Made by a program: the position numbers and the translations under genes. From IMG/VR virus record IMGVR_UViG_2690315711_000004: 31,546 nucleotides of DNA; one strand, given 5' to 3'. Under the pieces are notes generated by a model, which worked only from the letters and a program-made list of their open reading frames with translations, ran no database searches and was not told the origin of the DNA. The DNA comes from an uncultured virus (IMG/VR IMGVR_UViG_2690315711_000004) (Duplodnaviria; Heunggongvirae; Uroviricota; Caudoviricetes). Position 1 is the stretch's first letter, and every line of letters begins with the position of its first letter. Shown one piece after another: positions 1-30,971 of this stretch.

Positions 1-300
1 GAACAATACGGTCGGTATGTTTTTTTATTAAAGGCAGCCACATCAGAAACATGGTGGCCAGAAGAAGCGGATCACGTTTGTTTTATCCGAGGACGTATTG
101 GCTTTGACGTTCCTGAGTGGTTTGTTCCTGCAGATGAAAAGCAGAAACCAACGGGCGCATTCTTTGCTGGGGCAATAGTTGTTTTCGATAAAACATGGAC
201 GGGTAAAAAATTCGATTACATTCATCGTGATGAATTAGAGCAAATTGGCAAAGCATTTATTGAGCAAATGAAGTGGCTGGCGTCGAGAGGTGTTGCATGA
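1..300 (+). CDS. Phage DNA N6-adenine methyltransferase (Dam-like), 3' part only
   Basis: Frame 1 is open from base 1: ...YVFLLKAATSETWWPEEADHVCFIRGRIGFDVPEWF...GAFFAGAIVVFDKTW..., stop TGA 298-300; matches remembered phage adenine MTase C-terminal motifs. Confidence 0.8.
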   Translation, partial: EQYGRYVFLLKAATSETWWPEEADHVCFIRGRIGFDVPEWFVPADEKQKPTGAFFAGAIVVFDKTWTGKKFDYIHRDELEQIGKAFIEQMKWLASRGVA

Positions 301-1166: not shown

Positions 1167-1970
1167 ATGAATGGATTAATTGTTATTGATGGTTTTCAGG
1201 TTCGTAGAGATGTAGCCGGTCGCTATTGTTTAAATGATTTACATCGAGTGTCAGGTGGTGAAAAACGACACCAACCATCGAACTGGAGTTCATTGGCTCA
1301 AACGAAAGAGTTAATTGATGAAATTTCTACCGCTCCTGAGATCACAGGAGCGCCTATTGCCACTGTCGCTGGTGGATATAACCAAGGGACGTATGTTTGC
1401 AAAGAATTAGTGTATGCCTATGCAATGTGGATTAGTGCTTCTTTTCATTTGAAAGTGATCCGCACCTTTGATGCTTTAGTGACACAACAGCACCAGGAGA
1501 AACTCAGTGATAAGGTTCAAGCGGGTGTGATACTACTGGAATCGATGTCTAAAAGTTTAAATTTTTCGAATTCATCAAAATTAGGGGCTTATCAAAAGTT
1601 ACAAGCCATGGCAGGATTACCTGAATTAGCCCCTGTGTATGCGATTGATGCACCAAGTGGATCTATGGATGGCTCCAGTCGTCCAACAGTTGCATTATCA
1701 ACACTGATCAACAAACACAACCTACCTATTTCAGCACAGCAAGCCTATAAGCGATTAGCCGAACTCGGAATTGTTGAGCGTTTATCACGTCCAAGTACGA
1801 AAACTGCCAGCAAAGTAAAAGAGTTCTGGTCAGTGACTGCACGAGGTTGTCAGTTTGGGAAGAATATGACGAGCCCTAATAATCCTCGTGAAACCCAACC
1901 GCATTTCTTTGAGAGTAAAACGGATGAGTTGATCCGTATGGTGATGTTGAATAAACAGGTGAGCGCATGA
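1167..1970 (+). CDS. KilA-N domain protein (antirepressor/Roi-like)
   Basis: GRYCLNDLH, GTYVCKELVYAYAMWISASFHLKVIRTFD are KilA-N motifs; ATG 1167 follows GGAG. Confidence 0.88.
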   Translation: MNGLIVIDGFQVRRDVAGRYCLNDLHRVSGGEKRHQPSNWSSLAQTKELIDEISTAPEITGAPIATVAGGYNQGTYVCKELVYAYAMWISASFHLKVIRTFDALVTQQHQEKLSDKVQAGVILLESMSKSLNFSNSSKLGAYQKLQAMAGLPELAPVYAIDAPSGSMDGSSRPTVALSTLINKHNLPISAQQAYKRLAELGIVERLSRPSTKTASKVKEFWSVTARGCQFGKNMTSPNNPRETQPHFFESKTDELIRMVMLNKQVSA

Positions 1971-2992
1971 AGTTACTGTTAACGCCGTATATTCAAAAAG
2001 AATTGGGGGTTGTGTTATTGAAACCTGGAGCTGAGTTGCTTGAGCAATTTAGAAACCATCAGCGTGTGATCATCAGTGATGTACCACAGAGTTTAGATGT
2101 GTTGCCCTCAGGCGCATTAACCGGTGATGAACAGCCTATTTTAAACAATAAGTACATTGTTCAATTTCTCAATAACAAAAAGGTGATCCACACCATAGAT
2201 AAAGTGGCACCAATGGATACGTGGGTCGCTCATCATATTCATTGTTGTCAGATTAATAACGATGCAGATAACTATCATCATCATGAATTGGTGACCACAT
2301 TTCATGAAGCGGGTGTGATCCGCACTTGTTGGTATCACGATAATCATATTCGAAACTCATCAGCAGGGTGGGTTGCTGAGCTGGCTCATAAAAATCGTAT
2401 TGATTGGATGTTAGATACTATTCGTTTTCGTTTGAGATTAGATTGTGGCCACCAGCTGACGATACCTGATTTTTTCACCTTTGCTGTTATGCATAACGTT
2501 ATCGATGAATTACCTGATGCCATATTGCGGAGAGTGTTGGACTGGCCTAATAAACCCAAAGAACGCAGAGTACACGGCGGATTTCCTGAGGCTGATATTG
2601 TTCCAAATGAAATATCAGCATTATCTGCAATGAGCGGGCGTTTAGAGGCGATAAAGCCGGTTATTAAAGTTGCTGTCGATCCGGAGCCACCAGCCTCATT
2701 TCTGCTGAAACCTAAAATGCAACGTTGGGAAAATACCCAATGGTTGCAATGGGTAAAAACTCAACCGTGTTGCGTGTGTGGGCAACAGGCTGATGATCCG
2801 CATCACATCATAGGTCATGGTATGGGAGGCATGGGAACGAAAGCTCACGACTTATTCACTATTCCATTGTGTCGCATTCATCATGACGAGTTACATCGAG
2901 ATCCCAAACAATGGGAAGTCACTCACGGCAATCAACTCGAATTGTTATTTCATTTTTTAAACCGTTCATTAAGCATCGGTGCATTTATTTAA
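1967..2992 (+). CDS. DUF968 family protein (YdfU-like, C-terminal HNH-like Zn motif)
   Basis: WVKTQPCCVCGQQADDPHHIIGHGMGGMGTKAHDLFTIPLCRIHHDELH. Confidence 0.88.
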   Translation: MKLLLTPYIQKELGVVLLKPGAELLEQFRNHQRVIISDVPQSLDVLPSGALTGDEQPILNNKYIVQFLNNKKVIHTIDKVAPMDTWVAHHIHCCQINNDADNYHHHELVTTFHEAGVIRTCWYHDNHIRNSSAGWVAELAHKNRIDWMLDTIRFRLRLDCGHQLTIPDFFTFAVMHNVIDELPDAILRRVLDWPNKPKERRVHGGFPEADIVPNEISALSAMSGRLEAIKPVIKVAVDPEPPASFLLKPKMQRWENTQWLQWVKTQPCCVCGQQADDPHHIIGHGMGGMGTKAHDLFTIPLCRIHHDELHRDPKQWEVTHGNQLELLFHFLNRSLSIGAFI

Positions 2993-3019
2993 CGTGTGTA
3001 CGGCACGAGTGGAGGAAAT

Positions 3020-3700
3020 ATGCCAATTTATGCGCATGACTTGAAATATTTAAGTGATATGGCATCGATAGCTACATCAAACTTAAGGGCTTCAACAAAA
3101 GGTCAGTTAGAAGCATTTGAAGATTTTGGGTTAACAGACACGAGAGCAACACCAAGAGTTAGAATACGAGATTTAAAATTAAATGGTCGTTTTGTTTGTC
3201 GTGATACCGATCCAATCTATGTATTAGAAACTCGCTGTCGTCGAACACCAAAGCCGATGATAGAGCCTGTGGATTTTTTATTATGCTCATGGCGTAGGGC
3301 TATCAATGCATTAAGTGAAGAGCAACACTCATGGATAATGTATTGTTATGGATATAGCTTGAAATTTGAGCATCAAGTTAATATCAGTGTTCATGTGTGG
3401 TCTGAATTTGAAAAACAGCATAAAGGTAAAAAGATAACTAAAAAAGTTAAAGAACGACTAAGATCATTAGTCTGGTTATCGGTTCAGGCTTACACTAGGC
3501 GTAATTATTCACAAACAGAGCTGGCTCGCTTGGTGGGTGTTAAGCGTGATAATTGGAGTAAAAACTATCAAGTATATTGGGATTATCTACTTTATGTGTG
3601 TTATGAATTAGATAAATTGGCATTACTTTCAATGAGGCGAGTTAGAATCGAGTTGATCAATAAAAATAATAACGACAACTTGCAAAAGTCAACAAAATAG
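3020..3700 (+). CDS. Q: Late antitermination protein Q (phage 82-like family)
   Basis: Lies between DUF968 and pR'/tR'; CSWRRAINAL, WIMYCYG, C-terminal HTH SQTELARLVGVKRDNWSKNY; GGAGG SD before ATG 3020. Confidence 0.85.
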   Translation: MPIYAHDLKYLSDMASIATSNLRASTKGQLEAFEDFGLTDTRATPRVRIRDLKLNGRFVCRDTDPIYVLETRCRRTPKPMIEPVDFLLCSWRRAINALSEEQHSWIMYCYGYSLKFEHQVNISVHVWSEFEKQHKGKKITKKVKERLRSLVWLSVQAYTRRNYSQTELARLVGVKRDNWSKNYQVYWDYLLYVCYELDKLALLSMRRVRIELINKNNNDNLQKSTK

Positions 3701-4070: not shown

Positions 4071-4106
4071 AAAGCTGGTGGCTTAGCGGTCATCGGCTTT
4101 TTTATT
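4071..4106 (+). terminator. Putative intrinsic terminator
   Basis: AAAGCTGGTGGC...GTCATCGGCTTT stem (with G-U pairs) followed by a T-run. Confidence 0.5.
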
Positions 4107-4125
4107 GCGTAGAAAAGGACTTTTG

Positions 4126-5148
4126 ATGCAACTATTTAATGACGACGCGCTATCTGTATTGAAAACACTACCCGAAAATAGCATTGATTTAATTGCGACT
4201 GATCCACCGTATTTCAGAGTGAAATCGTGTGCATGGGATAATCAGTGGGATAGTGTTGAGGCATATCTGTCTTGGCTTGATGAAGTATTAGCTGAATTCT
4301 GGCGGGTATTAAAACCCAATGGCAGTTTGTATTTATTCTGTGGCTCTAAATTGGCATCAGATACTGAACTGCTTGTTCGCGGGCGATTTAATGTATTAAG
4401 TCATATCATCTGGGCTAAACCATCTGGGCCATGGAAAAAACAAAATAAGGAAAGCCTGCGCACCTTTTTTCCTTCAACAGAACGAATACTTTTTGCTGAA
4501 CATTATCAAAAACCAGTCGCAGCTAAAGGTTCTGAATTTTCGTTAAAATGTAAAGAGCTAAAGCAAAATGTATTTAAGCCATTGATTGATTATTTTAGAA
4601 ATGCTCGTTTAGCACTGCAGGTGAGTGCAAAAGAAATAGACCAAGCAACAGGTAAGCAAATGTGCAGTCATTGGTTCAGCAATAGTCAGTGGCAATTACC
4701 TAGCGAGGAAGACTATAAAAAGTTACAAACACTGTTTGCACACATTGCTGATAAACACGAAAAACTATCACCGTTATCCCGCCAGTTTACCGAGTTAGAG
4801 CGTGAGCAGGTTACATTACAAAAAGACTACCAAGAATTAATAAAAGAATATGGGTTACTAAGGCGACCATTCTTTGTAACTGCAGATGTGCCTTACACCG
4901 ATGTGTGGGATTATCCACCTGTTCAGTATTATCCCGGTAAACACCCTTGTGAGAAACCATCGGCCATGATGGAACACATTATTCGCTCAAGTAGTCGCGA
5001 AGGGGATCTGGTTGCTGATTTTTTTATGGGGTCAGGTGCAACACTGAAAGCAGCACTAAAACTTAATCGAGAGGTTTTAGGTGTGGAGCTTGAGAGAGAG
5101 CGGTTTGAACAAACCGAACAAGAAATAAAAGCGCTAACTTGTAAGTAA
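4126..5148 (+). CDS. Site-specific DNA methyltransferase (N4-C/N6-A, beta class), orphan
   Basis: Catalytic DPPY near the N-terminus, HPCEKP, and SAM-binding DFFMGSG near the C-terminus. Confidence 0.92.
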   Translation: MQLFNDDALSVLKTLPENSIDLIATDPPYFRVKSCAWDNQWDSVEAYLSWLDEVLAEFWRVLKPNGSLYLFCGSKLASDTELLVRGRFNVLSHIIWAKPSGPWKKQNKESLRTFFPSTERILFAEHYQKPVAAKGSEFSLKCKELKQNVFKPLIDYFRNARLALQVSAKEIDQATGKQMCSHWFSNSQWQLPSEEDYKKLQTLFAHIADKHEKLSPLSRQFTELEREQVTLQKDYQELIKEYGLLRRPFFVTADVPYTDVWDYPPVQYYPGKHPCEKPSAMMEHIIRSSSREGDLVADFFMGSGATLKAALKLNREVLGVELERERFEQTEQEIKALTCK

Positions 5149-26272: not shown

Positions 26273-26294
26273 ACCGCGCTAATGCGGTTTTTTT
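26273..26294 (+). terminator. Putative intrinsic terminator before the tail fibre gene
   Basis: ACCGCG-CTAA-TGCGGT followed by a T-run. Confidence 0.7.
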
Positions 26295-26322
26295 GTATCT
26301 AAATTTTAGGAAAATTATTCTC

Positions 26323-27657
26323 ATGATATACACAACAGGCACTGTTAGCACAGTGTCAGGGTCTGCTATTGTCTCTGGCACAGGTACTAAATGGACAGTT
26401 AATAATCCCGCTATTCGCTCAGGTACCATTATTTTAATTAAAAATGGTAATGCTAATTTTATTTACATGGTGGATAGAGTTAATAGCGATACAGAATTAG
26501 TTATTTCACAACCAGCTACATTTACCGTAAAAAACACCAGTTACAGTATTAATCTCACTGAGCCGAACTCATACAGCGACGCTAATAATCGTATGACCGC
26601 TATTGCATCAGATACGACGTATTTTCTGCGAGCAATGGATCAATGGATGATGAATAACGGTGTGGTGACAGTAGAGCTATCTAACGGGCAAAAAGTAACG
26701 TTAGATAGCATTAAGAAAATGCAGGGGGATATTAGTAATAAAGCTGATTTAACCTTATCAAAAACACAATCATTCACATCAGCGATAGAAGCAACAACGA
26801 AACTAACTTCAAAATCAGCGGATGGGAAAACATCAATATCATTGACGACCAGTAATGCTGGCGGAACCAATATCGAACTAAATTCTGCATCGGGTTATAA
26901 CGGGATACAAATACCAAAATCGTCAGGGACAATAATGCTTGTTGGTGATTATGGGACAGGTGGAGTGGGGCTTAGGGAGCCATCACCAGTTTCATGTTTT
27001 TATGGCTCACCATCAACAGGAGTACCGGGCTTTCCAAGTAATGGTGCCGGCTGGCAATCTACATATAGCGGAAATCGCCGTGCAATGTTATTTATGGATA
27101 CGTCAGGTAATTTACTCGCTAGATTTAGTCTATCAAATAACATTGTTGATACAGAAACGCCTTGGCGAACTTTGTGGAGCTCAAATAATACAACGGTAGA
27201 CAGTAACGGTTTTATTAAACGCGCCTCTCCAATTATCGACATCAATCCCGACGGCACATTCACCACTAACGACGAATCAGAAGGTGCTACCGTTACTCGA
27301 GTAGCTCAGGGTGAATATCTTATCGAGGGTGTACTCGGCTTTAACTCAGATGCAGGTTGGGGTGGTGTTGATGGGGGTATTGAAATTCCACTCGATGTTA
27401 ATAAACAGCCGTTGATATGGGTAGACTCTAAAGTTATGGAGGACGGTTCTATCCTCGTGAGAACGTATCATCGAACTCATCCTAACGCACCTAAATTTGC
27501 CCGTAATGATATTGATGGTTACAAAGACGGCGACCCAATTGATATCCCTGATGGTCGTTTTATTTCCGTTCGTGTACAGATGCCAGAGCAATCCATCTAT
27601 AATGTGAGAATGCGTGAGATGGAAGAAGCACAGAAAGCGGAAGAAAGGCCCCAATAA
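26323..27657 (+). CDS. Side tail fibre protein; extreme C-terminus probably clipped by the GC-rich insertion
   Basis: MIYTTGTV...IVSGTGTKW anchor, NTTVDSNGFIKRASP conserved C-domain; stop codon lies inside the loop of the foreign hairpin. Confidence 0.88.
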   Translation: MIYTTGTVSTVSGSAIVSGTGTKWTVNNPAIRSGTIILIKNGNANFIYMVDRVNSDTELVISQPATFTVKNTSYSINLTEPNSYSDANNRMTAIASDTTYFLRAMDQWMMNNGVVTVELSNGQKVTLDSIKKMQGDISNKADLTLSKTQSFTSAIEATTKLTSKSADGKTSISLTTSNAGGTNIELNSASGYNGIQIPKSSGTIMLVGDYGTGGVGLREPSPVSCFYGSPSTGVPGFPSNGAGWQSTYSGNRRAMLFMDTSGNLLARFSLSNNIVDTETPWRTLWSSNNTTVDSNGFIKRASPIIDINPDGTFTTNDESEGATVTRVAQGEYLIEGVLGFNSDAGWGGVDGGIEIPLDVNKQPLIWVDSKVMEDGSILVRTYHRTHPNAPKFARNDIDGYKDGDPIDIPDGRFISVRVQMPEQSIYNVRMREMEEAQKAEERPQ

Positions 27658-27665
27658 GGGGCCTT
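27645..27665 (-). terminator. Hairpin/terminator for the inserted minus-strand gene
   Basis: AAGGCCCC-AATAA-GGGGCCTT perfect 8-bp stem, a few nt after the 222-aa ORF stop; short T-rich tail on the minus strand. Confidence 0.7.
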
Positions 27666-27672
27666 CGGGTGC

Positions 27673-28341
27673 TTAGTCTTTCTTTTCGAAGACATCGGGG
27701 ATATCGGGGATATCGGGGTCAAAGCCGCCGTCATCACCACCGTCGCCGTCGCCACCATCTTCGCCGTCGCCACCATCTTCGCCGCTGTTTTCCGGGTAGC
27801 CGCCGTCATCACCACCTTCTGGCAATAAGCCTTCGGGGTCTGGGTCGGAAACGGTGCCGATCACATCGCCAGCGCTTTCAGGCGGGGTCGGGTCGTTTCC
27901 GTCAACTACTGCTGGGGCTGGAACGCCGGTCAGTTTGCGCAGGATCATTTTAACAGCCTTACCGCCAATCTGGACGATAACTTGGGCTGCCACGCCAGCT
28001 GCAATCTGAATTCCTAAGTTCTCAAGTTCCTTATCGGTCGCAGACGCGGGCATGTAGTTTTGCGGCCAGTTCAGATTGCTTTTGGCCGCTTGCAGAACTT
28101 GTTTGTACAGATTGCTCTGCTCTGCGCCGGTCGGCCCTACGATTAGCGAACAACTGTAGGTGCTGAGAGTGTTAGAGCCTTCTGGCTCCATCACGTCGAT
28201 AGAAACCAACTTCTGCGCGTCGCGCTGTGCGGCTTCTTGAACCGCGCCCGAAAGCTGGTTCAGGTTGTAGCAGAACGCAGTAAAGCAAACATTCCCGAAA
28301 GCATCGGTGAATTGCAGGCGAAGAGGGTTTGATACATTCAT
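27673..28341 (-). CDS. Orphan 222-aa protein: globular N-domain, hydrophobic/amphipathic helix, acidic Gly/Asp/Pro-rich tail
   Basis: Strong SD AAGGAG 7-8 nt before ATG; own terminator; in-frame codon-multiple repeats. Confidence 0.82.
   Translation of the reverse strand: MNVSNPLRLQFTDAFGNVCFTAFCYNLNQLSGAVQEAAQRDAQKLVSIDVMEPEGSNTLSTYSCSLIVGPTGAEQSNLYKQVLQAAKSNLNWPQNYMPASATDKELENLGIQIAAGVAAQVIVQIGGKAVKMILRKLTGVPAPAVVDGNDPTPPESAGDVIGTVSDPDPEGLLPEGGDDGGYPENSGEDGGDGEDGGDGDGGDDGGFDPDIPDIPDVFEKKD
27694..27816. repeat. Coding tandem repeats in the acidic tail
   Basis: ATCGGGGAT x~3 (27694-27718); TCGCCGTCGCCACCATCT x2+ (27743-27784); AGCCGCCGTCATCACCACC at 27723 and 27798. Confidence 0.9.
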
Positions 28342-28574
28342 TGCTAATCTCCTTCTTGTATGAGCTCTCTATTGTGAGCGAATAAACGAAACTTACTAAC
28401 GCGCAGGCCTCGTCAGATACCACCTTTGGCGATTTTTCTATGGCCACAGCGGAAATTGTTGCCACACCCCAAGCCCCGCCTATCGGGGCTAGTCCAGCGA
28501 AAAGAAGCGCCTTTACCTAGCTTGGCCTGACCGACTTTCGTTGGTAGCGGGATGATCCGGGCTGCAGGTTTCGG

Positions 28575-28709
28575 TGCTGGTTGTTGACGTTCAACTTCGG
28601 ACGTAACAACTGGCATATTGAGGCGTTCTTTATAAGCGACACCTGAGGCGGCTAAATCGACATTGATTTTGTCTTTTTTTTCTTGAGATAAGTTCGCAAG
28701 GTTTCTCAT
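28575..28709 (-). pseudogene. holE: Phage-borne DNA polymerase III theta homolog (HolE/Hot), truncated after 45 aa; frame runs on into the insert to 28413
   Basis: [45 protein letters not shown] aligns with E. coli theta N-terminus ([22 protein letters not shown]...VEREQP); last helix missing. Confidence 0.88.
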
Positions 28710-28865
28710 TCTATAAGCTATATTAATGAATTGTAGAATAAGTATAGCATAGGAATAGGGCGAGGATTGAACTTTAACTATGGTAAATCTGATGTGGGTT
28801 TTACACCAAGCAAATTCCAAGTATAAGAAAATCAACCATTACTGGTTGTTTTTCTTAAATAAAAA

Positions 28866-28917
28866 TGGTCGGCATGATAGGATTTGAACCTACGACCCCA
28901 GACTCCCCATGACAGTG
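28866..28917 (-). pseudogene. proL: 3' half of tRNA-Pro(GGG), att-site remnant
   Basis: Reverse complement CACTGTCATGGGGAGTCTGGGGTCGTAGGTTCAAATCCTATCATGCCGACCA: anticodon region, T arm, CCA; no 5' half. Confidence 0.85.
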
Positions 28918-28934
28918 TATAATATAATATTAAT

Positions 28935-29744
28935 TTAAGGCTTTTTTAAACTTGATGGGTAAGGGGGACGCTGGTTAATATATTGAAAAATAAATACACA
29001 TATCACGGAAAAGCCCATAATACGCATCACCCATGGAGAACTACTATCTCTAACGGGGCGGGGTGTAGAAATAAAAGCCTCTGGAGAGGCGAATGAGTAA
29101 ATAATCATTAATAGGATCATTATTGGAAACAATAGTGACAACAATAAAAGAATTACATCTAATGCTTTTTTACTAAAAGTTTTTTGGGATTTTTTCTTTT
29201 TTCTTGATAGTTTTTTCTGTTTACTAAAGATAGATTTTACACCTATTAGTTTTCCTTTCTCCCTAACATCGTTTTTATCTCCAGTATGGAGAATTTCTAT
29301 TCTAGCACCTTCATTTTTTTCAATAAAATCAAAATCAATAAGAATACAATTAGGATATTCACTGTCAGTCTTTAGCTCTATATTATTAATAGGATTGTTT
29401 GATGCTACGACTTGATAACGCAATAATTGAATTTCCCTGCTAAGCTCAATTCTTAGAGGTTCTTTAGTAGCTAATGCACTTTTTGTTATAACAGAGTTAC
29501 CCGAATTCCAAATAACAAATTCAGAAGAAGATACACTTTCTACTAATGAGCCATCATACATTACACTTATTTGCTGTGGTAGGCTCGAGTGGTTTTTATT
29601 TATGAGGTTTGAAAATTCATGGCAGCTAGAGATTTTATAAACTTTACGAGTTAAAACATAAATAAAAATGGCTATAAGAATACCAATGATCCCAATCACT
29701 GTACCCAGCGCGGAATTTGATAAAATATTATTAACTGTATCCAC
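28935..29744 (-). CDS. AT-rich membrane protein (N-terminal TM, beta-rich soluble domain, Lys-rich linker, two C-terminal TMs)
   Basis: 269-aa ORF, GTG start with GGAG SD; three hydrophobic segments. Confidence 0.8.
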   Translation of the reverse strand: MDTVNNILSNSALGTVIGIIGILIAIFIYVLTRKVYKISSCHEFSNLINKNHSSLPQQISVMYDGSLVESVSSSEFVIWNSGNSVITKSALATKEPLRIELSREIQLLRYQVVASNNPINNIELKTDSEYPNCILIDFDFIEKNEGARIEILHTGDKNDVREKGKLIGVKSIFSKQKKLSRKKKKSQKTFSKKALDVILLLLSLLFPIMILLMIIYSFASPEAFISTPRPVRDSSSPWVMRIMGFSVICVFIFQYINQRPPYPSSLKKP

Positions 29745-29916: not shown

Positions 29917-29947
29917 TGGTGGAGCTGGCGGGAGTTGAACCCGCATC
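29917..29947 (-). pseudogene. ssrA: 3' end of tmRNA, att-site remnant
   Basis: Reverse complement GATGCGGGTTCAACTCCCGCCAGCTCCACCA matches the enterobacterial ssrA 3' end; rest of the gene absent. Confidence 0.88.
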
Positions 29948-29956
29948 TAAATAATT

Positions 29957-30625
29957 TTAATTGGTTGATGGTTTTGGTATGTTTGCTGTATATAGAATAT
30001 TTCTAAATTCATTTTCTACAGCCTCACGAGCTTTTGTCATATTACCATTTATTTCTTCAAATAATTTTTGTAATTCAGGATTAATACTTGCTGATTTATT
30101 TTCATTAGTACTACTAGCTATACGAGCTTGATTTAATGCTTTCATAGCTGAATAATGAAATTTTGAGAGTATTTTTGATGTTTCATAAGAGAAATAAATT
30201 TTATTTTTTTCATATTGTTCTATGAATTTATCAAGTTTAGGTAAGGCTAATTCATATGCTATATGTATAGATGGAGTTGGTCTACCAAAATAATCAGGAC
30301 GAATGGTAGTATAAACTACTTCATGTAGTTCAACCATTAATTTATATATATTATCAATTACGTCAGCTCGCCTTTCAATAAGATTTGCGTGGCTCAATTA
30401 TGTAGCGTATCTTTCTATAGTTAAATTATGTTCATTTATCTGTTTTATAATAGTATTTTGTATATCAAATGCTTTTAAGTTTTCATCATTTTTATGTTTA
30501 TTTTTTAAATTAATACTATCTCTTAAAACGCTTGCTACAAATCCGCCTAAAGAAAGTAATGCAATAGCTATTGTTCCAGCTACTATTCCATAATTTTCTA
30601 TTGTTAATTTTATTAAGTTATCCAT
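29957..30625 (-). pseudogene. Membrane-anchored helical cargo protein split by one in-frame TAA
   Basis: ORFs 30398-30625 and 29957-30397 are contiguous and in the same frame (...ERYAT*LSHANLIERRAD...). Confidence 0.75.
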
Positions 30626-30806
30626 TGTAATATTTCCTTCTCTATTTTAATTAGATTAATTATATATTTTTATATGTGGTTATCAAAATCAATAAAAGCA
30701 TGATGATAATCAACTAGTTATAAAAAGGCATAACCATCGTCTTTTAGGTCTATGAAGAGTAAATATGATTTAATAAACAAATAATTAATAATAGTTGATT
30801 TATATA

Positions 30807-30971
30807 ATGCTACGCCATATGGGTTGGACAGAAGCCGCTGACTTAATCATTAAAGGTATGGAAGGCGCGATTGAAGCGAAGACCGTTACTTATGATTTCG
30901 AACGTCTAATGGACGGCGCTAAATTGCTGAAATGTAGCGAGTTTGGTGACGCGATTATCAAACATATGTAA
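30807..30971 (+). pseudogene. icd: Isocitrate dehydrogenase 3' fragment (icdC-like), probable attR
   Basis: [54 protein letters not shown] is the Icd C-terminus; upstream DNA is non-coding and AT-rich. Confidence 0.93.

Follow-up and report, generated by a model that had tools for sequence, protein, structure and literature searches.

A foreign single-gene cassette, gained by replacement and reshaped by deletion, at the fibre/theta junction of an uncultured virus

Gene content and edges of the GC-rich block

The DNA analysed here, referred to as the window, is a 31,546-nucleotide (nt) stretch of an uncultured virus of the Caudoviricetes (IMG/VR record IMGVR_UViG_2690315711_000004). Near its right end a tail fibre gene (26293–27657, + strand) converges on what is left of a phage theta gene, and between the two lies a GC-rich block (27646–28573) with a single gene, orf222 (27673–28341, − strand), which encodes an orphan protein of 222 amino acids (aa). 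A Shine-Dalgarno sequence, AAGGAG (28349–28354, −), stands 8 nt before the ATG of orf222 and is invariant in the four contexts that could be aligned; it forms part of a 115-nt leader (28342–28456, −), delimited by alignment and BLAST limits, which is conserved in all four. A terminator-type hairpin with a 9-bp stem lies 3′ of the gene (27644–27666, −). The block is foreign DNA gained by replacement: a single-gene cassette that a later deletion reshaped, located at a hot spot for cargo and common to phages and plasmids across bacterial orders.

The GC content of 27646–28574 is 0.55 against a mean of 0.398 (sd 0.029) in 31 non-overlapping 929-bp windows elsewhere (z 5.2), none of the 929-bp windows beyond the block goes above 0.45, and GC at third codon positions (GC3) is 0.587 in orf222 compared with 0.33 in the fibre gene. 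Within the block neither a transposase or integrase open reading frame (ORF) was found in the ORF list and with Pfam, nor terminal inverted repeats in a repeat search. An earlier note, made from the letters of this DNA alone, had described a block of about 930 bp at this place holding one complete unit of Shine-Dalgarno sequence, 222-aa ORF and hairpin, free of transposase, integrase and terminal inverted repeats, and all of this was recovered.

Comparison with Proteus phage vB_PvuS_Pm34 (KY420199; Hendrixvirinae) supplies the empty site, as Pm34 matches both flanks of the block and nothing inside it. Positions 27186–27645 correspond to 2787–3246 of the Pm34 locus at 90.9% identity and positions 28574–28703 to 3418–3547 at 88.5%, with homology stopping at 27645 and restarting at 28574, so that 928 bp stand where Pm34 has 171 bp and both proposed edges of the block are borne out. 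The Pm34 genes for fibre (gp50) and theta (gp49) are convergent, their stop codons lying 4 bp apart, and the integrase gene comes next; the replaced 171 bp are made up of the final ~23 codons of the fibre gene, the 4-bp spacer and the final ~32 codons of the theta gene. On the right the theta gene is cut, as the earlier note had read it, and continues as a chimeric ORF of 99 aa, theta′ (28413–28712, −), in which ~46 theta codons (28575–28712) are followed by 53 codons of foreign DNA. The retained part is 91% identical to Pm34 theta (39 of 43 positions over residues 2–44 of the latter) and the BLASTP alignment stops at residue 46, while residues 4–46 of theta′ cover only positions 3–45 of the 70 in the profile of the HolE family (PF06440). 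The complete theta domain of ~70 residues is lacking from this ORF, which scores 72.7 against a cut-off of 97 for NCBIfam NF008207, and theta′ is thus a truncated and probably inactive chimera. A phage homologue of theta is also known in Hot of phage P1; orf222 itself is unrelated to theta. On the left the fibre gene (PF25670, phrog_1591) is without its native last ~23 codons and ends in AEERPQ followed by a stop, its product aligning with Pm34 gp50 to residue 386 of 410; the stop codon TAA (27655–27657) is supplied by the foreign DNA and falls in the loop of the hairpin, again as had been proposed.

An intact fibre/theta arrangement is the norm. Scanning IMG/VR with Pm34 theta yielded 416 relatives, and among the best 80 loci theta is full length in 74 and orf222 is present in none; the fibre C-terminus is included in 28 of the 80, and in 19 of these 28 the two genes converge within 76–157 nt. 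Relatives without the block but with the fibre and theta ends of the window would, by the earlier note's own test, have spoken against its reading; the ends in Pm34 and in the 74 loci are instead different and full length. The nearest virus record (G001) breaks off within the fibre gene and gives no information on the block. In five loci (L022, L024, L028, L043 and L062) 1.3–2.4 kb of other cargo occupies the junction, and because sister proviruses hold other cargo there the fibre/theta junction is a cargo hot spot, with toxin–antitoxin and bacteriocin genes among its contents. The individual cargoes are a gene with a SocA/Panacea antitoxin domain and a 135-aa partner (L022, L024, L043), a 627-aa bacteriocin with a cloacin domain and an 87-aa ORF (L028), and a DUF1706 gene (L062). 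None of this alternative cargo gave a PADLOC match.

The abrupt change of composition at both edges is what an assembly chimera joining unrelated DNA would also produce, an explanation refuted by independent assemblies, given that identical junctions occur in four independent loci (P. penneri L002 and L004–L006) and that the junction sequence is present, at a share of 0.90 or more of the sampled words, in 14 DNA runs, which after removal of three possible source samples still span four studies. The junctions are thus no artefact of assembly.

History of the junctions and distribution of the cassette

The P. penneri genome (L002) has the same right junction and the same truncated theta as the window. 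It retains the full native fibre end (ending in EEMKAQLGLGEHDVLL and a stop), followed by 263 bp of AT-rich DNA and by ~80 bp of extra cassette flank that is also found in the Klebsiella and Pseudomonas copies described below. In the window and in L004–L006 the fibre sequence ending in GCGGAAGAA is fused directly to GAAGAAAGGCCCC of the cassette flank, and comparison of the window with Pm34, P. penneri and the Klebsiella plasmid places the fusion at GAAGAA (27640–27645), a short sequence that fibre gene and cassette flank have in common. Since the form kept in P. penneri is longer and its fibre end intact, the left edge of the block in the window is best read as secondary, a later deletion of ~410 bp across this 6-bp microhomology. 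The left edge of the earlier note was therefore correct in its position and in the fibre stop, but not as the original insertion junction. At the right junction GTGCTGG (28567–28573) is common to Pm34 theta and to the cassette side, and is possibly a microhomology as well.

The imperfect direct repeat near the block ends (TTCGGGTGCT and TTCGGTGCT), to which the earlier note had drawn attention, exists as letters and went unreported by the repeat-family search. Its left copy, at 27664, lies within the cassette between the hairpin and the orf222 stop codon and recurs in the copies from Klebsiella and Pseudomonas, and for this reason the repeat is neither a target-site duplication nor any other footprint of insertion and carries no meaning.

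These comparisons suggest a history in two steps. First, as P. penneri indicates, foreign DNA of mosaic make-up, 1.28 kb or more in length, would have entered by illegitimate recombination at the fibre/theta junction of a Proteus lambdoid (Pm34-like) prophage, overwriting the last ~32 codons of its HolE/Hot-like theta gene. In the lineage of the window the ~410-bp deletion between GAAGAA repeats would then have removed the last ~23 fibre codons together with the distal cassette flank, leaving a fibre gene that ends inside the terminator loop of the cassette. With empty, intermediate and derived states all at hand, the locus offers a clean and datable case of the gain and reshaping of prophage cargo, in which a phage theta gene was sacrificed and a fibre gene re-terminated within a foreign hairpin.

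Relatives of the orf222 protein are few, amounting to eight clusters of 70–98% identity among 5.8 billion proteins, and the sources of these clusters name Proteus mirabilis, P. penneri and Providencia. At the DNA level the gene was found in three IMG/VR proviruses, in the P. penneri genome and in one Pseudomonas palmensis contig (L003); among the species genomes sampled it occurs in 1 of 201 from the family of the former and 1 of 401 from the genus of the latter, in each case the starting genome itself. A search of 72,556 plasmids added ten copies, all on K. pneumoniae plasmids of ~95 kb and 92.8% identical at the nucleotide level over 27640–28505. In the single plasmid inspected (L007), a conjugative IncFIA/IncFII plasmid, the cassette gene lies amid fragments of IS3, Tn3, IS91-type and ISL3 elements and a lipase gene; ssb/psiB is 4.7 kb away on the other strand. 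Nearest among the copies are those of the Klebsiella IncF plasmids, beside a Serratia-like piece of 52 bp (28503–28554), and that of the Pseudomonas prophage, at 85% nucleotide identity over 27640–28456 and a synonymous divergence (dS) of only 0.19. The Pseudomonas copy is flanked by DNA of GC 0.60–0.67 and has phage genes for tail-fibre assembly and Rz lysis to one side and a tyrosine integrase gene to the other, with ordinary chromosomal genes adjoining. The 52-bp piece is 90% identical to unannotated Serratia plasmid DNA (L008, 3001–3052), and no gene, Rfam family or repeat accounts for it.

No match to orf222 was returned by tblastn against 50,697 phage records, and blastn of the block against phages gave only GC-rich, low-complexity matches of ~60–90 nt; the cassette was likewise without a match in E. 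coli genomes and in a scan of metagenome contigs. Among side observations on these contexts, 66 plasmid records match the 52-bp piece, 36 of them from Serratia and the rest other enterobacterial plasmids. In the Pseudomonas contig ORFs of 103, 156 and 82 aa adjoin orf222 (1783–3315, −) in a patch of lower GC (0.46–0.58) between the lysis genes and the integrase gene, without significant Pfam or PADLOC match.

The limits of the shared segment differ for every pair of contexts, P. penneri having extra upstream DNA in common with Klebsiella and extra downstream DNA in common with Pseudomonas. With no fixed ends, the cassette must have been excised anew each time, as in illegitimate recombination and unlike a site-specific element. 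The hallmarks of a transposon, insertion sequence (IS) or integron cassette, namely a mobility ORF, terminal inverted repeats, a target-site duplication and constant ends, are all missing from the block. Mobilization of the IS91 type through the neighbouring Y2_Tnp fragment of the Klebsiella plasmid was considered and rejected, this being a fragment of 129 aa that the other contexts lack. Sequence comparison thus points to movement by illegitimate recombination and suggests that the cassette passes between orders on phages and plasmids, its present carriers being Klebsiella IncF plasmids, a Pseudomonas prophage and prophages of Proteus and Providencia. The earlier proposal of capture by replacement through illegitimate recombination accords with the exchange of 171 bp for 928 bp, with ends that differ in each context and with the lack of repeats and mobility genes. 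One promoter-less-looking cassette without ends has in this way come to be held at 85–93% nucleotide identity by conjugative plasmids of Klebsiella, one prophage of Pseudomonas and prophages of Proteus and Providencia.

Expression, the orf222 protein and its possible role

The hairpin 3′ of orf222 folds with −21.3 kcal/mol (z −4.2), a value reached by none of 200 shuffled sequences, and it is kept in the Klebsiella, Pseudomonas and P. penneri copies. Upstream, conservation marks the 115-nt leader as the candidate site of a weak promoter belonging to the cassette. The distal leader part (28457–28505, −) is present only in the Klebsiella plasmids and P. penneri and includes a GC hairpin (28476–28494) that is not significant (z −1.3); the fold of the leader is not significant either (z −0.9), and Rfam reported nothing above noise on the sequence. 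Two metatranscriptome runs from a single study contain contigs, 1033 nt and 1063 nt long, that coincide over their whole length with 27658–28681 and 27666–28719, a span reaching from the hairpin to the theta′ start codon, and these give a weak hint of a bicistronic theta′–orf222 message. On this hint theta′ and orf222 would probably be transcribed as one unit of ~1.05 kb ending at the hairpin. In X16 and X17 the tail genes have no or almost no cover and the fibre contig has a depth of 2.3 against 183 and 20.7 for the unit, figures that are not usable as evidence; runs X18–X20, which hold small shares of the words only, were not used.

The product of orf222 falls into three parts. Residues 1 to ~100 are predicted, with low confidence, to form an α/β arrangement of the order β-β-α-β-β-α. 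Segment 109–137 is hydrophobic at first and then amphipathic and basic, with a hydrophobic moment of up to 1.7 and a best Kyte-Doolittle (KD) value, over 19 residues, of 1.55, which is borderline. Homologues have E120 with K124, or R124, inside the hydrophobic segment, and these charged residues favour a surface helix over a membrane span. The remaining 85 residues constitute a tail of Asp, Gly and Pro with a net charge of −24 (20 Gly, 12 Pro) that ends in FDPDIPDIPDVFEKKD. The motif at the end of the tail reads [FIL]DPD(IPD)n, then a pair of hydrophobic residues (in the window VF), then [EK]KKD, the invariant columns being D208, P209, D210, I214, P215, D216, K220, K221 and D222. Within it FDPDIPD resembles the NFDDEIPF end of the single-stranded DNA-binding protein (SSB) encoded by the Klebsiella plasmid itself, although in orf222 the motif is not C-terminal. 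The ORF is intact in all six DNA copies translated, and differences in tail length, including a 9-nt insertion in the contigs from the RNA runs, are all in frame. The ratio of nonsynonymous to synonymous divergence (dN/dS) lies between 0.19 and 0.42 across comparisons, at 0.42 against Pseudomonas and 0.34 against P. penneri. As a separate observation, the part of the gene that codes for the acidic tail contains direct repeats of 9-nt and 18-nt period (27686–27819; families D1 and D2), which together with the in-frame length differences suggest that slippage drives variation in tail length.

That the protein belongs to no recognizable family, as the earlier note had supposed, is upheld by the searches. 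Pfam, PHROGs, PADLOC and NCBIfam assigned it to none of their families, the defence profiles of PADLOC-DB to none at E up to 0.1, and Pfam at E up to 10 with 11 members of the family gave only THDPS_N (8 of 11, best E 0.01), below its cut-off. Profile search of PDB sequences returned only a lectin (E 0.12), and among 1.84 billion representatives no relative appeared outside the cluster of orf222 itself, the four matches being that cluster, a frameshifted 74-aa tail fragment (P0025) and two that are noise (hhalign probability 0.5% and 2.7%). The ESM Atlas held no usable match, and neither did the fold searches (Foldseek against PDB, best E 0.31; VIA-align wide, best Z 4.5). A literature search on the protein accessions found nothing relevant, with Pm34 merely named.

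Morons, as PMC3594210 describes them, constitute extra DNA relative to related phages, carry a promoter and a terminator that belong to them, and are expressed from the repressed prophage. Set beside this account, the cassette is extra DNA relative to Pm34 and to all 80 theta loci, which are without orf222, but it replaced 171 bp; its GC and GC3 deviate as given above; for promoter and terminator there are a conserved leader and a strong hairpin as candidates, the scan listing neither; and expression from a prophage is weakly hinted at by the contigs from the two RNA runs that equal the theta′–orf222 unit. Two of the four defining features, the extra DNA and the deviating composition, are thus present. 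It resembles lambdoid morons of the HK97 gene 15 type in being extra DNA of deviating GC relative to a sister phage, in its single gene with a terminator-type hairpin of its own that faces the late operon, and in the presence of other cargo at the same junction of related proviruses. It differs from them in having replaced sequence rather than adding to it, in having a candidate promoter only, in a product unrelated to gp15/YebO, and in its occurrence on plasmids. The earlier note had pictured a lysogen-expressed moron transcribed against the late operon, of which the orientation is correct and the expression in a lysogen has the weak hint of the RNA-library contigs. Taken as a whole, the explanation that we find reasonably, though not strongly, probable is that of moron-type cargo composed of leader, Shine-Dalgarno sequence, one ORF and terminator hairpin, with neither mobility genes nor defined ends. 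The event would be of an ordinary and well-documented kind; the gene is genuinely an orphan.

As to what the protein does, our leading guess, a tentative one drawn from its sequence, is a cytoplasmic polyanionic decoy active in contests with rival phages, rival plasmids or the defences of the host. The protein would most likely be cytoplasmic. Specificity would come from a small, folded N-terminal part, while the disordered polyanionic tail of 85 residues, including the conserved motif at its C-terminus, would sit on that surface of a target protein which binds nucleic acid.

A number of points weigh against this explanation and its parts. The hairpin was not listed by the consensus terminator scan, because its U-tract is imperfect; the consensus promoter scan found no sigma-70 site in leader or cassette, and P. 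penneri has a 3-nt insertion in the spacer of the only promoter candidate. A contig from another study (X15, 27187–28627) extends through the hairpin into the fibre gene; RNA-library contigs in general may contain DNA and show neither strand, level nor ends. For the protein, constraint is only moderate in the N-terminal 140 residues, where dN/dS against Pseudomonas is 0.49; AlphaFold2 models are not confident, with a predicted local distance difference test score (pLDDT) of 35.6 at full length and of 47.5 for residues 1–140, where the predicted template-modelling score (pTM) is 0.42; and a folded N-terminal domain is indicated by secondary-structure calls and conservation only. The setting of the Klebsiella plasmid gene among IS and Tn fragments, opposite in strand to ssb/psiB, lends no support to an anti-defence role in the entry phase.

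The last point bears most directly on the closest alternative, which we hold to be improbable: that orf222 is an anti-defence protein, either a DNA mimic with the effect of Ocr or ArdA or a counterpart of the acidic SSB tip, made on entry into a new host against restriction or DNA-binding defences. A gene that crosses orders on phages and conjugative plasmids, an extremely acidic tail and the likeness of FDPDIPD to the FDDEIPF end of the plasmid SSB would all suit such a protein. However, no anti-defence family is matched in Pfam or PHROGs, the plasmid gene is on the strand opposite to the leading-region genes amid IS debris, the prophage gene has a far-end position with lysogen-type orientation, and the SSB-like motif is not C-terminal. 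Ocr and ArdA share with orf222 a strong negative charge and carriage by mobile elements, but they are folded mimics, whereas orf222, which gives no sequence match to them, has its charge in a disordered tail. With SSB there is a common layout of a folded N-terminal part (predicted in orf222), a Gly/Pro-rich disordered linker and an acidic motif F-D-x-[DE]-I-P. It differs in that orf222 has no predicted OB-fold, the linker is itself polyanionic, and the motif is internal, with (IPD)n, a hydrophobic pair and [EK]KKD after it. Binding in the manner of the SSB tip requires a free terminal Phe, which orf222 does not have, and with no Pfam SSB match, a predicted mixed α/β structure and a motif away from the C-terminus it is not a member of that family.

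Somewhat less probable again is superinfection exclusion by a membrane-anchored protein such as HK97 gp15 or P22 SieA, with residues 109–127 in the inner membrane and the tail blocking DNA entry. Moron-encoded exclusion proteins are the classic precedent (PMC3594210), the orientation of the gene is of the lysogen type at a hot-spot position, and the hydrophobic stretch 109–127 (KD 1.55) leads into a strongly amphipathic basic helix (hydrophobic moment 1.6–1.7). Yet the KD value stays under the usual threshold of 1.6, E120/K124 or R124 interrupts the segment in homologues, and, with positive charges on the tail side, an N-terminus of 108 aa would have to be exported without a signal peptide; moreover, plasmids and Pseudomonas carry the cassette too, and there other phages would have to be excluded.

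We think it unlikely that orf222 is a hitch-hiking ORF without present function, kept merely through recent transfer. The moderate constraint (dN/dS 0.34–0.49), the tiny family of eight clusters and the want of a confident structure model would be in keeping with such an ORF, but the reading frame is intact in six of six translated copies from three orders, all indels are in frame, the C-terminal motif is invariant, and whole RNA-library contigs span the unit.

A bolder version of the decoy reading, to which we give very little credence, would make orf222 a new class of effector, in which a specificity domain is joined to a polyanionic tail whose end imitates the acidic SSB tip or single-stranded nucleic acid and so traps SSB-interacting or DNA-binding enzymes of rival phages, plasmids or the host. 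If true, such imitation could account for the retention of one cassette by prophages and by conjugative plasmids over three bacterial orders. Should the protein prove inert, the cassette would be an ordinary moron. As a true orphan it is a cheap target for phage-challenge and pull-down screens.

Neighbouring features of the window

To the right of theta′ three fossils of attachment sites lie in tandem within 2.1 kb. The first (28866–28909, −) is the 3′ part of a tRNA gene, with T-arm, acceptor and CCA recognized by eye, ARAGORN reporting no whole tRNA; the second (29917–29947, −) comprises the last ~31 nt of ssrA, and a whole tmRNA gene abuts exactly here in the P. penneri genome and in L005; the third (30795–30971, +) holds the C-terminal 58 codons of icd (PF00180). 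At the loose ends of the RNA-run contigs, intact genes are found in other genomes at 28917 and 30807. The arrangement suggests that the right arm of the prophage was built by successive swaps of integration modules and that the element in the window now resides in icd. Between the fossils are very AT-rich ORFs (GC 0.23–0.35) of 269 aa (28935–29744, −), 146 aa (29957–30397, −) and 75 aa (30398–30625, −), for which Pfam, PHROGs, PADLOC and NCBIfam gave no significant match; P. penneri has the 269-aa ORF in two pieces of 120 and 69 aa. The early region of the window encodes two DNA methyltransferases, one Dam-like (PF05869) and one of the N6_N4_Mtase family (PF01555), at 1–300 (+) and 4105–5148 (+), and includes KilA-N, DUF968/HNH and antiterminator Q genes.

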